The translations under genes and the position numbers were made by a program. This document shows positions 4,875 through 39,049 of a DNA stretch of 64,000 nt, one piece after another. Origin of the DNA: Candidatus Methanomethylophilaceae archaeon (lineage in GTDB: Archaea > Thermoplasmatota > Thermoplasmata > Methanomassiliicoccales > Methanomethylophilaceae). Numbering within the stretch: position 1 is the first letter of the stretch; each line of letters starts with the position of its first letter. The notes under the pieces were generated by a model. It was not told where the DNA came from and did no database searches. It saw nothing but the letters and a program-made list of their open reading frames with translations. The stretch spans positions 38,163 to 102,162 of the forward strand of contig JBMNQN010000004.1 of assembly GCA_050944155.1 (NCBI GenBank). The letters are read 5' to 3'.

Positions 4875-5399
4875 TCAGTTTTCGGGGTAAGTAATCAGTG
4901 AGTCTACTTCGTACCCCTTGAATTTATTCCGTCCTCCGAGCCCCGCAAGCTCTATGAGGAAACACATTTTGACTACTTTTCCGCCCAGCTGTTCGACCAT
5001 TTTCACCATGGCTTCCGCGGTTCCTCCGGTTGCGATCAAATCGTCGATGATTACGACCTTCTGTCCGGGTTTTATGGAATCTTTGTGCATTTCCAGCGTG
5101 GCGGTTCCGTATTCCAGATCATATTCCATTTCTATGGTTTCGCGCGGGAGCTTTCCTTTTTTCCTGACGATGACGAATCCTTTGTGCAGGGCGTAAGCCA
5201 CAGGAGCCCCGAAAATGAATCCTCTGGATTCTGATCCGGCAACGACGTCGAAATCGACTCCTTTGAGCATTTCGGCGATACCGTCGACGGCCATCGCAAG
5301 TCCGTCTTTATCCTGGAGTACCGTCGTTATGTCTCTAAAAACCACTCCCTTTTTGGGAAAATCGGGTATTTCCGTTACGTAGTCTTCTACAGTCTTCAT
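4875..5399 (-). CDS. apt: Adenine phosphoribosyltransferase (bacterial type)
   Basis: IPDFPKKGVVFRDIT, ESRGF, RKKGKLP, LEYG, PRPP loop IIDDLIATGGT. Confidence 0.97.
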   Translation of the reverse strand: MKTVEDYVTEIPDFPKKGVVFRDITTVLQDKDGLAMAVDGIAEMLKGVDFDVVAGSESRGFIFGAPVAYALHKGFVIVRKKGKLPRETIEMEYDLEYGTATLEMHKDSIKPGQKVVIIDDLIATGGTAEAMVKMVEQLGGKVVKMCFLIELAGLGGRNKFKGYEVDSLITYPEN

Positions 5400-5437
5400 A
5401 AGCCCGAAATTGAAAATTGAATATATAACAACAGCCG

Positions 5438-5454
5438 AAAAACCCCAGAGGGGT
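5438..5454 (-). terminator. Hairpin plus U-run terminator
   Basis: Minus strand ACCCC-tct-GGGGT followed by a T-run. Confidence 0.55.
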
Positions 5455-5645
5455 AAAGGTTCCCGGCACAGCCGGGTTTGTTGCGGTCATCAGTCGAGTC
5501 TTGCAGACAGCCCGCGTGAAAGGTCAATCAGAGTGAAGCGCCGACCGGCCTACCTTCTGCTCTTTGTTACCCGTACACATTACTGAGTTGTCTTCGCCGC
5601 AGATCCAAGTGTTTTGTCGTTTCCCGATAGTTGCTTACCTCCGGT
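5438..5645 (-). ncRNA. Candidate structured non-coding RNA of unknown class
   Basis: GC-richer ~200-nt block between AT-rich flanks; TATA at 5666-5674, several hairpins, 3' terminator; no convincing ORF. Confidence 0.45.
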
Positions 5646-5712
5646 ACTATACATTGATTCCCTACTATTTATAACATATGTTTTTCGTTTTCCGTTGAAT
5701 CTATGATAATAA

Positions 5713-5727
5713 CTACGAAATTCGTAG
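5713..5727. promoter_or_regulatory. 15-bp palindromic operator (Lrp/Ptr2-like)
   Basis: CTACGAA-A-TTCGTAG with perfect 7-bp arms, ~40 bp upstream of the TATA at 5666-5674. Confidence 0.5.
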
Positions 5728-5822
5728 AAAAGGTTACAGAAAGCAAATAATGTACTTTTTCGGGAATTACAGCATATTTCAAAAAAATCAAAGAAAAGGC
5801 CGGCGGGTGCCGGCAAAAAGTT

Positions 5823-6926
5823 TCAGTTCAGCTGTTCCGAGCAGTACGGGCAGAACTTCGGGGTCTTCTTAAGCCCGGCAAGACTCTCTCCGCAGTACGG
5901 GCAGATTTTGAAAGTTCTGCCCTCTCCGTCGGAAGGAGCGGGAGCCGCCGCAGGCGCCGCGGGGGCTGCCTGAGCATTTCCGGCTGCAGCCTGCTGCTGG
6001 GGCGAAGGTTTTCCGCAGTTTCCGCAGAATCTGTACGGATAGTCGTTGGGACTTCCGCAGTACGGACACAGAACTTTCGGAATCTGGTTTCCCTGTTGCT
6101 GCTGGGCGGCCTGTTGCTGCTGAAGCTGCTGGTACATCTGGGGGAACAGAAGCATTCCCGTACCTACAGCCGCGCCCCCGCTGGAGTTTCCGATGGCATC
6201 GGCCATACGGTCCATGACTTCGTACCTCTTGAAGGCCTCACCGTTCTGGGAACTGAACTGGAGATAGTTGAATATCTTCTCCTGATCCTCGTCGGTGGTT
6301 CTAAGCTCCGCAATCTTGAACGCCAGAAGTTCGATTCCCCTCTGTTCGAAGTAAGGCTCTATGAGGGCTTTGGTGGTGGACGAGGCTTTTTCGAGGTTTC
6401 CGTAGACTTCCATGTAGTATTGTTTCGTGAGCTGCTGGGTAATCTGTTCGTTTATGAAACTCTTCATGAAACTGTTGACGTCCGCCGTGCTGTACGAATT
6501 CATTCCTCCGATAACCTGGGTGTAGAATATCGACGGGTCCTTTATGCGGAACTGATAGTCTCCGTTGGACATGAGCACGATGGGAACGTCGTATCCCGGC
6601 GCAGCCTTGATCATGCCTCTGATGCCCCACCTTCCGTTGAACATCTTCAGGGAAACGAAGATTACCTGAACCTTGAACGGCGTCTCTTTGTATCCGAGTG
6701 CCAGATTGTACAGTTTGGTAAGCCAGGGGATGTTGGAACTGGTCAGTACGTGTCTTCCCGGCTCCAGAACCCCGGTAAGCTGTCCGTCTCTTATGAACAG
6801 GGCTACGGCGTGTTCGGGGACGGTCACGGAAGTGACGGTTCTCAGGTCGTCCCGGTCGTATTTGTAGATGATGTCGTCCGGACCCTGTCCGTCCCAAAAT
6901 ATTACGTTTGTTTTTTTCTCGGCCAT
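5823..6926 (-). CDS. SPFH/band-7 (YdjI-like) protein with Q-rich linker and C-terminal zinc ribbons
   Basis: VTVPEHAVALFIRDGQLTGVLEPGRHVLTSSNIPWL and PFKVQVIFVS; CPYCG..CGNCG and CPYCG..CPYC; ATG at 6926 after SD gaggagtga. Confidence 0.85.
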   Translation of the reverse strand: MAEKKTNVIFWDGQGPDDIIYKYDRDDLRTVTSVTVPEHAVALFIRDGQLTGVLEPGRHVLTSSNIPWLTKLYNLALGYKETPFKVQVIFVSLKMFNGRWGIRGMIKAAPGYDVPIVLMSNGDYQFRIKDPSIFYTQVIGGMNSYSTADVNSFMKSFINEQITQQLTKQYYMEVYGNLEKASSTTKALIEPYFEQRGIELLAFKIAELRTTDEDQEKIFNYLQFSSQNGEAFKRYEVMDRMADAIGNSSGGAAVGTGMLLFPQMYQQLQQQQAAQQQQGNQIPKVLCPYCGSPNDYPYRFCGNCGKPSPQQQAAAGNAQAAPAAPAAAPAPSDGEGRTFKICPYCGESLAGLKKTPKFCPYCSEQLN

Positions 6927-6931
6927 CGGTA

Positions 6932-7480
6932 TCACTCCTCTCCGTCCGCGAATCCTTTCATTACGGAGTCTCTGTTTCTGTATTCGTCGATCATGGAATC
7001 GACGGCGGTTTCGAGTTTTCTCAGATCTCCTCTGATTGCGTATTCGCCCCTGTCGATTTTGGCGACGAGTTCCGCAGACTCCTTTCTGAGTCCGGCGGCG
7101 CTTTCCACCAGCCGGGCATCCCACATAATCAGCCGATCCAGTTCCTCTTCCAGAATTTTAACCGAAGAAGACAGTCCGCTGTATCCGCCGGCGGCCTTTT
7201 TGACCGAAATGTAATACTGGTCCACTTTCGCTCTGATTCTTTCGGTGTCTCTGAGCAGTTCCAGATCTCCGGTGACGGCTCTCTGTACCGTACCGAGATC
7301 GGATTTGGTTCCTTCCAGGGTCCGGGCAACCTCCTGTCTTACGGCTCTGTCCTCGTCCCTGCGGAGGTTTTTCTGTTTGTATCCCCTGTATATGGGAATG
7401 TAAAGTCCTATGCGTTCTATCATAGACGTGGTGCTTTTCATCTGGTCTCCGACTTTTTTGTCCAACGTCATTTTTCTCAC
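6932..7480 (-). CDS. Conserved all-helical hypothetical protein (SPFH-operon associated)
   Basis: IPIYRGY..K..RRDEDRAVR and AAGGYSGL..VKI.EEELDRLI.WD motifs; charged and helical; tightly coupled in the operon. Confidence 0.8.
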   Translation of the reverse strand: MRKMTLDKKVGDQMKSTTSMIERIGLYIPIYRGYKQKNLRRDEDRAVRQEVARTLEGTKSDLGTVQRAVTGDLELLRDTERIRAKVDQYYISVKKAAGGYSGLSSSVKILEEELDRLIMWDARLVESAAGLRKESAELVAKIDRGEYAIRGDLRKLETAVDSMIDEYRNRDSVMKGFADGEE

Positions 7481-37832: not shown

Positions 37833-39049
37833 CTCTCCGGTTCTTCGTATTTTATCGTCAATACGTCCAATTCCTGGACTGTGCAGGGTATTCCCAGGGC
37901 ATCGGAGAAGTTAGGTATGCTTCTCCCCCCGTCGCCGGACACGAACTCCTTCACGTATGTTCCGGATTCCGTTTCCAGTGTAAGGTCGAACGTACAGTCT
38001 CCGACCGGTTCCGCCTCGACCCAGCGGATAGTTCTTTTTCTCACCAGGTCGGCACGTCTGTGCTCGACGCGGGTGGGAGTCCTCTGGTCGATACGGGTAT
38101 CCCTGAACGATAAGGCTACCTCAATTAGTTTCTCTTTATTAACTTTGCCGTCGGCCTTCACACGTGCGCGATATACTTTGTCGGGGTCGGCGCCTTTGTA
38201 CCTCTGCACGGCTTCCCTCTCTGCGAAACGCAGGTCTCTGAACTGTGCCAGATCCGATTTGTTGGCTTCTCTCTCCAAAGCCCGAAGATCTATGTTTCTG
38301 ATTTTGGGGTTACTGAGTTCCAGAACGAAAGGACGGCCGTCTCCGAGCATGAGTGCGTCTATGTCTTCGCGTCCCATTCCGTGGAAAAAATGTTCTTTTC
38401 CGCCGCACATTTTCAGAGCTACGTCCCCTATGATTTCCTGCACGGAAGTCTGATACATTTTACCGGTGTTTCCGCATCTGGCACATCCTTTTCCTTTGCA
38501 CATTCTGCAGGGCCATACGGTCTGCGGGATTTCTCTGCTCAGTTTGTTGTAGCGGCCTGTTATGAAGATGGGCTTGATGTCCAGTTCCACGTCCGCGAAA
38601 CGGGTGTCTATGCAGGCCACCACCTGCGGGTTTTTGAATTCCACGTTTCTCCCGAGAATCTCGAAAGATCTTTTTCCGATTTCCCGGTTAAGTTCCGCTT
38701 TTATGGATTCGTTTTTTTCCAGCCCGAATTTTTCTGCCAGTTCCTTTTCTTTGGAAATTATGAGGGGATCGACTTTGGTTCCCACTAGAAAATTGTCCGA
38801 TTCCACGGTTTCCACGGTTTCCGAAACCGATTCGGCGAAACGGTCCAGAAGATCGAAAATGTTTCCGCACAGCGGACACACGGCGTCGGGAACGACGTCC
38901 CCCATCTCCCTGCGGAGCATGGATCCGCGTACATCGTTCGTCATACCGGTGCTTTCTTTTCCGAACATTCTTCCCAGGCAGCGGTCGCAAAGACCCAGCT
39001 TTGCCAGTTCTTCGGCCTTCTCAAGATTGTTTACGACCCATTGTTCCAT
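37829..39049 (-). CDS. pus10: tRNA pseudouridine(54/55) synthase Pus10
   Basis: LCDRCLGR, GRYNKLSREIPQT, FHGMGREDID, GTYVKEFVSGD. Confidence 0.96.
   Translation of the reverse strand: MEQWVVNNLEKAEELAKLGLCDRCLGRMFGKESTGMTNDVRGSMLRREMGDVVPDAVCPLCGNIFDLLDRFAESVSETVETVESDNFLVGTKVDPLIISKEKELAEKFGLEKNESIKAELNREIGKRSFEILGRNVEFKNPQVVACIDTRFADVELDIKPIFITGRYNKLSREIPQTVWPCRMCKGKGCARCGNTGKMYQTSVQEIIGDVALKMCGGKEHFFHGMGREDIDALMLGDGRPFVLELSNPKIRNIDLRALEREANKSDLAQFRDLRFAEREAVQRYKGADPDKVYRARVKADGKVNKEKLIEVALSFRDTRIDQRTPTRVEHRRADLVRKRTIRWVEAEPVGDCTFDLTLETESGTYVKEFVSGDGGRSIPNFSDALGIPCTVQELDVLTIKYEEPES

Follow-up and report, generated by a model that had tools for sequence, protein, structure and literature searches.

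A new, independently transcribed family of structured RNA in the methanogen family Methanomethylophilaceae

Analysis of a 64,000-nucleotide stretch of the genome of Candidatus Methanomethylophilaceae archaeon (GCA_050944155.1, contig JBMNQN010000004.1, forward-strand positions 38,163 to 102,162; hereafter the window) revealed a new family of structured non-coding RNA (ncRNA) that has its own promoter and is confined to one family of methanogens. The RNA gene spans positions 5438-5645 of the minus strand, on which all features of the locus described below lie, and is ~205 nucleotides (nt) long. It is preceded by an archaeal-type TATA box (TTATAAATA, 5674-5666), from which transcription is predicted to start at ~5642-5645, at the usual distance of ~26 nt. 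An earlier reading made from the letters alone (the sequence-only reading) had proposed an unannotated, independently transcribed structured ncRNA at this place, and the lack of an Rfam match, a covarying fold and metatranscriptome contigs all agree with that proposal. As to its working mode, we favor, with a probability of roughly 0.55, an RNA acting in trans that uses its invariant internal loop and its A-rich segment to bind a protein or ligand.

No known RNA family accounts for the locus. Searching the window with Rfam 15 at gathering thresholds returned five transfer RNAs (tRNAs) only and left the locus itself empty, in line with the earlier impression that it matches neither tRNA, 5S, signal recognition particle (SRP) RNA and RNase P nor common riboswitches. 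A permissive scan of 5350-5850 (E up to 10) turned up nothing beyond a SNORD27 match on the promoter (E = 3.9), which is attributed to chance, and an Rfam scan of 20 diverse homologues yielded nothing consistent. Known riboswitch classes (purine, PRPP/ykkC, ZTP, cobalamin, lysine and others) were rejected, as no covariance-model match was obtained at the locus or consistently in the 20 homologues. A hidden housekeeping RNA was likewise rejected, as the genes of this genome for RNase P RNA (C2:126247-126539, 197 bits), SRP RNA (C7:24255-24562, 169 bits), 5S (C10:6404-6525, 95 bits) and 16S (C2:37991-39460) lie elsewhere; the 23S ribosomal RNA (rRNA) motif was not found in the 27 contigs of assembly G000, where 16S and 5S are on separate contigs. 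Mimicry of rRNA was considered as well, as GAAAGAC resembles a piece of 23S. A full-text literature search, whose reach did not extend to the supplementary ncRNA table of PMC4153887, found no description of the RNA, and the searched text of that comparative genomic study of the order lists ncRNAs from Rfam only (PMC4153887).

BLASTN against 40 relatives recovered the stretch in 14 of 15 same-genus genomes and, in the remainder of the family, in 4 of 9 genomes, with a single copy of the RNA gene in its own genome. Within the genus, the order of an SPFH protein gene, the RNA and the adenine phosphoribosyltransferase gene apt is constant, and the genus alignment shows a conserved TATA box, palindromes upstream of it, near-invariant blocks and hairpin arms that change together. 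The most conserved block, used as a pattern to scan 185,579 species genomes, afforded at least 119 stretches, at least about 28 of which also carry CTGCGGCGA 85-101 nt upstream, mostly together with a TATA box. Among the matches listed, the CTGCGGCGA-bearing stretches are contigs of Methanomassiliicoccales or Methanomethylophilaceae; the other matches are bacterial and were discarded as chance matches, as 17 specified bases would give. From the matches listed, 35 non-identical homologues were collected. The covariance model (197 positions, 37 pairs) aligned 62 matches, 51 of them distinct, and these 51 homologues share the promoter and a covarying fold, which answers the question of conservation in relatives, named beforehand as a test, in favor of the RNA. 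Between 33 and 51 homologues conserve the TATA box, GCGGCGA, an 18-nt strand described below and a 3' CUUACCCC. One contig (L056), filed under a Dialister hominis assembly, has the conserved blocks of the RNA and an apt 70% identical to that of the window, and is probably an archaeal contig in a bacterial bin.

The fold was derived by comparison, its helices being termed P1 to P6. When the stretch between GCGGCGA and GCAAGAC was folded alone, one long irregular hairpin resulted in 35/35 homologues; the bases directly 3' of CGA pair with those directly 5' of GCAAGAC, and the sequences vary among lineages. An alignment of 33 sequences showed standard pairing in 20-33 of them at each of the first nine P3 positions, where 3-6 types of pair occur. 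Across the 51 distinct sequences, whose alignment was fitted to the model and is hence biased toward it, 86.8% of cells are paired versus 32.1-48.4% when the partners are slid by 1-3 columns, double-sided changes occur in 28 of the 37 pairs, and none of 500 shuffles attained any of five covariation measures. Compensatory changes were observed for 9/9 pairs of P3, 2/2 of P4, 4/4 of P5 and 2/3 of P6. As the slid controls and the independent single-sequence folds agree, we consider the rod to be real, and the RNA is structured as had been supposed. For 15 sequences aligned with plain MAFFT, RNAalifold gave a first consensus of only 16 pairs, and the rod emerged only after each core had been folded separately.

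All motifs picked out by the sequence-only reading are present at the positions it gave, and comparison upheld some as structural elements and removed others. At the 5' end, the segment 5634-5645 contains the predicted start and GGAGGUAAG (5642-5634), the 5' strand of the probable closing helix P1, in which GAGG is invariant (33/33). The GGAGGT noted here (5642-5637) indeed has no ATG behind it, and the window offers no start codon at Shine-Dalgarno (SD) spacing. The strand continues into a conserved A-rich joining segment, J1/2 (5602-5633), with the motif UAUCGGGAAACG at 5629-5618, whose pattern NAUCGGNAAACG is retained in most of the 51 homologues, including the diverged forms of genus g8. 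A pseudoknot between this motif and the 3' half of the rod was rejected (complementarity 5.41 versus 5.43 in the control). The hairpin TCG-GGAAA-CGA (5627-5617) did not hold up either, its three pairs forming in just 31, 45 and 23 of 51.

The most conspicuous part is an asymmetric internal loop between P2 and P3. The GCGG/CCGC pairing (5600-5597 with 5486-5483) recognized earlier is part of this helix, in which UGCGG (5597-5601) pairs with CCGCA (5482-5486); it is nearly invariant, with four pairs being G-C or C-G in 50-51 of 51 and the fifth being U-A in 30, U-G in 14 and C-G in 2. The short strand of the loop, CGA (5594-5596), is found in 48/51 homologues, the exceptions being three weak g8 forms. 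The long strand is the near-invariant 18-nt GCAAGACUCGACUGAUGA (5487-5504, consensus GCAAGACUCGACKGAUGA); the pattern GYAAGAC-N5/6-GAUGA occurs in 48/51, and in 20 homologues the strand is identical to that of the window. We regard it as the candidate recognition surface. Between the two strands, the rod (5505-5593) comprises P3 (5593-5585 with 5505-5513), P4 (5563-5560 with 5530-5533), P5 (5557-5554 with 5535-5538) followed by a 3-nt bulge, and P6 (5549-5547 with 5540-5542) capped by the loop GGUC (5546-5543), all of them covarying. The proposed hairpin GTC-TGCAA-GAC (5508-5498) is compatible with 42-50 of 51 sequences and shows zero compensation, and its GTC is the 3' strand of the covarying P3, with which it competes; it was not upheld.

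Behind P2, whose 3' strand reads CCGCR in 49/51, ACAAA follows in the window (5481-5477); the corresponding letters are ACAA in 33, AUAA in 10, GCAA in 4 and others in 4 of the 51. Next comes an optional hairpin, CCCGGC-UGU-GCCGGG (5476-5462), which the sequence-only reading had also named and which covaries well (double changes in 6/6 pairs, 77% of cells paired), though it is missing in 5/33 aligned homologues. The 3' strand of P1, CCUUUACCCC (5459-5450), overlaps a 3' hairpin, CCCC-UCU-GGGG (5453-5443), behind which U5 (5442-5438) marks the end of the RNA. Both use the same C-run, and P1 and the hairpin thus compete. A terminator had been placed at 5438-5454: the sequence CCCC-TCT-GGGG plus T5 is there (5453-5438) and a C-run/G-run hairpin is found in 34/51 homologues, often followed by U's, but the terminator scan did not list the 4-bp stem, which lies below its cut-off.

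The promoter, too, is a conserved feature of the RNA gene. The TATA box, already assigned to 5666-5674, is kept as TATAAATAG/TATATATAC among the aligned homologues. Upstream of it lie the palindrome CTACGAATTTCGTAG (5713-5727) and a second ACG-N5-CG-like repeat (~5680-5697); TACGAWWWTCGTA-like or ACG-N5-CGT palindromes precede the RNA's TATA box in homologues of several genera and occur at the same place in L002-L011, L039, L050, L066, L095 and L182. In the terminator scan, the CTACGAATTTCGTAG palindrome is listed as an inverted repeat only, and it is probably the binding site of a regulator. Genome-wide counts revealed no clear regulon of the palindrome (TACG-N5-CGTA, 18 sites versus ~16 expected; ACG-W5-CGT, 13 versus ~7). 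An identical copy is located in another intergenic region (C3:22352), before a Sel1/TPR-like gene.

Expression was examined in public data, in which a 361-nt query was found, whole or in part, in 11 runs of 7 studies, 9 of them recorded as RNA. Contigs of four metatranscriptomes from four studies were placed on 4900-6100, all with at least 99% identity. In X1, the contig of the RNA region extends from 4900 or lower to 5631 at a depth of 113, and a contig of the upstream gene starts at 5824 with a depth of 11.9; in X2, the RNA-region contig covers 5404-5631 (depth 8.6), in X6 it covers 5338-5580 (depth 109.5, with an apt-body contig at 6.2), and in X8 it covers 5452-5619 (depth 13.1). The promoter stretch 5632-5823 is covered by none of the four metatranscriptomes, which, these being contigs, is a hint only. 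In two studies the contigs stop at 5631 and thereby lack ~11-14 nt after the TATA-predicted start; a 5' shortfall of this kind is common in complementary DNA (cDNA) libraries. At the other side, contigs end at 5452, 5404 or 5338 or run on into apt, with one contig joining the RNA to apt. The check for expression thus found the RNA present in RNA libraries and its promoter absent from them, and termination is leaky, since contigs run past U5 and one continues into apt.

The covariance model matched 36 of 63 other genomes of Methanomethylophilaceae, 0 of 87 genomes of six sister families of the order and none of 134 genomes sampled from 28 further families in the class; these searches are samples with strict filters, so that absence means not found in those searched. 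By genus, strong matches were obtained in 7/7, 4/4, 4/4 and 15/19 genomes and in three genera at 1/1, weak matches in 3/13 genomes of g8, and none in g6 (0/8) and g4 (0/2). Laxer filters gave weak full-length matches in 3/3 g8 genomes and no match in g6 or g4, one genome each. The g8 forms (L173-L175, L177), located upstream of apt, are strongly diverged (21-39 bits): they keep the 5' GGAGGCG..AAUCGGGAAACG and the apical motif or part, while P2 and the 18-nt strand are swapped for other sequence that includes a CCC-GGAA-GGG hairpin. A second subtype, type B, is found beside a gene for a small QueG/RdhA-like Fe-S protein. The type-B paralogues (L013, L014, L016, L020, L109, L130) lie ~80-97 nt upstream of the gene for this 247-amino-acid protein, which distantly resembles QueG or reductive dehalogenases, in five of six cases; the copy of L013 is followed by a Cas3 HD gene instead. 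One genome possesses two paralogues, one of each type. A third variant stands at the apt locus of G002 (L182:440-660, G002:C1), a genome that also has a type-B copy elsewhere. It has the same promoter palindromes, rod and GAUGACC, a different 12-bp closing helix (GGCAGGGAGUCG/CGAUUCCCUGCC) and neither GGAGGUAAG nor the AUCGG motif.

Taken as a trans-acting molecule, the RNA would serve as a ribonucleoprotein scaffold or as a ligand-binding RNA. Its recognition core would consist of the invariant loop strand, CGA and the A-rich 5' segment, and the molecule would be closed by pairing of the 5' GGAGGUAAG with the 3' CUUACCCC. The same C-run could alternatively build the 3' hairpin before the U-tract, so that termination would be leaky and some transcripts would enter apt. 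Several observations weigh against this reading or limit it. The function is assigned by inference from the anatomy, and a search for antisense targets of the 18-nt strand in the own genome gave chance-level matches only, with no partner or target. The recognition core is not universal, since it differs in the g8 forms and in the apt-linked variant of G002. The closing helix P1 is 81% paired and shows compensatory change in 3/8 pairs, with the pair at columns 10-252 being standard in just 22/51; as P1 is mostly invariant, it lacks proof by covariation. The single-sequence minimum free energy is no better than that of shuffles (z = +1.58), which is uninformative. The abundance of the RNA is seemingly high, the contigs giving neither strand, true ends nor expression level. 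Furthermore, apt follows in the same direction 34-143 nt downstream in 32 of the 51 distinct homologues (counted by tblastn, within 300 nt), and a cis role is conceivable, given that RNA and apt share one contig and that further contigs pass U5.

The most serious alternative, which we nevertheless regard as unlikely, is therefore a riboswitch-like cis leader of apt that serves purine salvage. A ligand or protein would stabilize P1, block the C-run/G-run hairpin and allow read-through, and terminated leaders would build up as a short RNA. Such a leader would fit the grouping of numerous helices about conserved junction bases that is typical of aptamers, the overlap of the P1 3' strand with a hairpin present in 34/51 homologues and the contigs just mentioned. 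It would also fit the neighborhood, as apt lies downstream even of the diverged g8 and G002 variants, and in four further homologues hpt converges on the RNA, with adenine deaminase in three and with apt still behind hpt in one. However, 19/51 homologues have no apt within 300 nt downstream, and in many of them the next gene is convergent. A subclade of genus g3 with a convergent P-type ATPase gene downstream and without apt retains the RNA at 131-163 bits, and its P3 changes are compensatory (AAAU..AUUU versus GAAU..GUUC). In addition, apt has its own TATA-like box (TTATATAT, 5428-5421), as the sequence-only reading had pointed out; it lies ~30-40 nt before the ATG, a homologous TATA box precedes apt in genomes lacking the RNA, including a species that shares its genus with an RNA-bearing one, and in several genomes the terminal U-tract of the RNA is itself the apt TATA box. 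Together with the g3 subclade, these observations disfavor the RNA as an obligatory leader of apt. The upstream SPFH gene is conserved about as widely as apt, and adjacency alone is no proof of a functional tie, because the SPFH-RNA-apt block is ancestral and may simply have been inherited. Two structural points also speak against a leader: the core differs between subtypes at one locus, which would be unusual for a metabolite aptamer, and in genus g20 the hairpin overlapping P1 has no U-tract behind it, which is carried by a second hairpin instead. Moreover, to our knowledge, it is not established that a hairpin can direct termination by archaeal RNA polymerase. More doubtful still is the specific proposal of a new archaeal class of riboswitch or protein-responsive switch for purine salvage, in which P1 and the 3' hairpin, competing at the U-tract, would decide on the run-on into apt. 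The matching proposal that a purine-related ligand is sensed in the core of 18-nt strand, CGA and A-rich segment, with the terminated form persisting as an abundant small RNA (sRNA), appears to us just as doubtful.

A guide or antisense RNA of the box C/D, H/ACA-like or sRNA type, in which the 18-nt strand or the C-rich 3' motif would pair with rRNA, tRNA or mRNAs, seems improbable. Its appeal lies in the UGAUGA beside a helix with CGA opposite, which resembles a box C with a kink-turn (K-turn) and a GA-containing strand, in the ANA behind the helix in 43/51, and in an invariant single strand as expected of a guide for a conserved target. The sequence-only reading had stressed the CTGATGA (5493-5487) for its likeness to box C and a K-turn, but this likeness dissolves in the alignment. 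The position before GAUGA varies (U, G, C), and the opposite strand reads CGA followed by RRAY, AGAC in this genus, so that AG stands where a K-turn needs GA; the would-be G-A bases covary with the far strand of P3 as Watson-Crick pairs. Neither box D nor D' is found at guide spacing, and no C/D or H/ACA family matched at E up to 10, bar the chance SNORD27 hit on the promoter. The ACA noted behind CTGATGA is ACA in 33 and AUA in 10 of 51, and eight homologues have GCA, CCA or others. A pocket of 3 versus 18 nt over a lower stem of just 5 bp is not the two-sided pocket of an H/ACA RNA. With ~205 nt, the RNA also exceeds the 50-70 nt of a box C/D RNA, which is ordered C-D'-C'-D with guides of 10-12 nt, or the ~60-70 nt per guide unit of archaeal C/D and H/ACA sRNAs, and a structured rod of 110 nt separates the two elements. 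In its own genome, from whose assembly 23S is missing, no rRNA or tRNA complement of the strand was found; the best non-self match was 16/18 with G-U allowed, and none lay in 16S.

An mRNA for a small protein, with a non-AUG start behind GGAGGU as also considered by the sequence-only reading, is scarcely credible. The SD-like GGAGG is invariant at the 5' end and the sense strand contains stretches of 28-68 codons free of stops, but the lengths of the 51 homologues are spread evenly over the modulo 3 classes (16/17/18), whole variable hairpins are gained or lost, substitutions in helices are compensatory, and no start codon follows GGAGG at SD spacing in the window. A very divergent version of a known RNA, whether RNase P, SRP, 5S, a hammerhead or one of the known riboswitches, is equally far-fetched. 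To the eye, CUGAUGA close to a GA-rich strand is reminiscent of a type II hammerhead and ACAAACCCGGC of RNase P CR-V, but the RNase P, SRP and 5S genes lie elsewhere, the hammerhead C3/U4 positions vary (CU, AU, AC, CG, CC) with an extra C between the helix and GA, and neither a hammerhead nor any other Rfam family was matched across the 20 homologues.

Regarding the neighboring genes, apt (5399-4875) was assigned by an NCBIfam apt equivalog match of 245.6 bits, and the upstream gene (5823-7124) encodes an SPFH/zinc-ribbon protein (Pfam Band_7_1 and DZR). This protein is composed of an SPFH/Band_7_1 domain, a Q-/A-rich linker and two zinc ribbons; its listed 5' extension, with a GTG start and an Arg-rich N-terminus, is probably too long, since relatives align only from ~residue 63. 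Directly after the SPFH stop codon, a perfect 6-bp G+C hairpin, GCCGGC-ACCC-GCCGGC, is followed by CTTTTCTTTG (5799-5814). This hairpin, the end of the RNA itself and strong hairpin-plus-U ends in the g20 homologues suggest that this archaeal family makes common use of hairpin-plus-U terminators of the bacterial style.

Returning to the trans-acting reading, the closest relatives in kind are the raiA, OLE and ROOL/GOLLD-type motifs, orphan structured bacterial ncRNAs found by comparative genomics. Like these, the RNA is a stand-alone gene with promoter and terminator, has covarying helices around conserved unpaired bases, is abundant in RNA data, and has a narrow taxonomic range and no known partner. 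Unlike them, it is archaeal, has a TATA promoter and shows no sequence or model similarity to them; it is also smaller than OLE or GOLLD and tied to one syntenic position beside apt. Another comparison is offered by the bacterial 6S RNA, which is rod-shaped and contains an internal bubble. Both are abundant RNAs of ~200 nt that form a rod closed by both ends around a conserved internal loop, but the loop found here is 3 versus 18 nt and conserved in sequence beyond its shape, and RF00013 gave no match. We know of no archaeal counterpart of 6S. The pbuE/ydhL adenine riboswitch, an ON switch based on competition between P1 and a terminator, shares the position upstream of a purine-salvage gene and a closing-helix 3' strand that overlaps a hairpin followed by U's. 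In contrast to it, the present RNA is ~3x larger, forms a rod and not a three-way junction and gives no purine-riboswitch match, apt has its own promoter, and many copies have no downstream gene to regulate.

Apart from the universal ones, large structured ncRNAs that covary strongly are rarely met in Archaea, and expression is the sole basis for most entries of archaeal sRNA catalogues. The RNA described here combines a well-supported fold, an almost invariant loop strand and evidence of high expression, and thus provides a concrete target for pull-down, probing and knock-out. It also adds an archaeon with hairpin-plus-U-tract gene ends in which an RNA terminator sits on the TATA box of the next gene. 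If a purine-related ligand were sensed, riboswitches would gain a new class and archaeal gene control a new mode, and if read-through into apt were switched, the RNA would be an archaeal riboswitch that acts by terminating transcription. Were it the RNA component of a ribonucleoprotein, it would point to an undescribed lineage-specific machine in methanogens that are associated with hosts, in the gut, or live in digesters, and that are relevant to methane emission and the gut archaeome.

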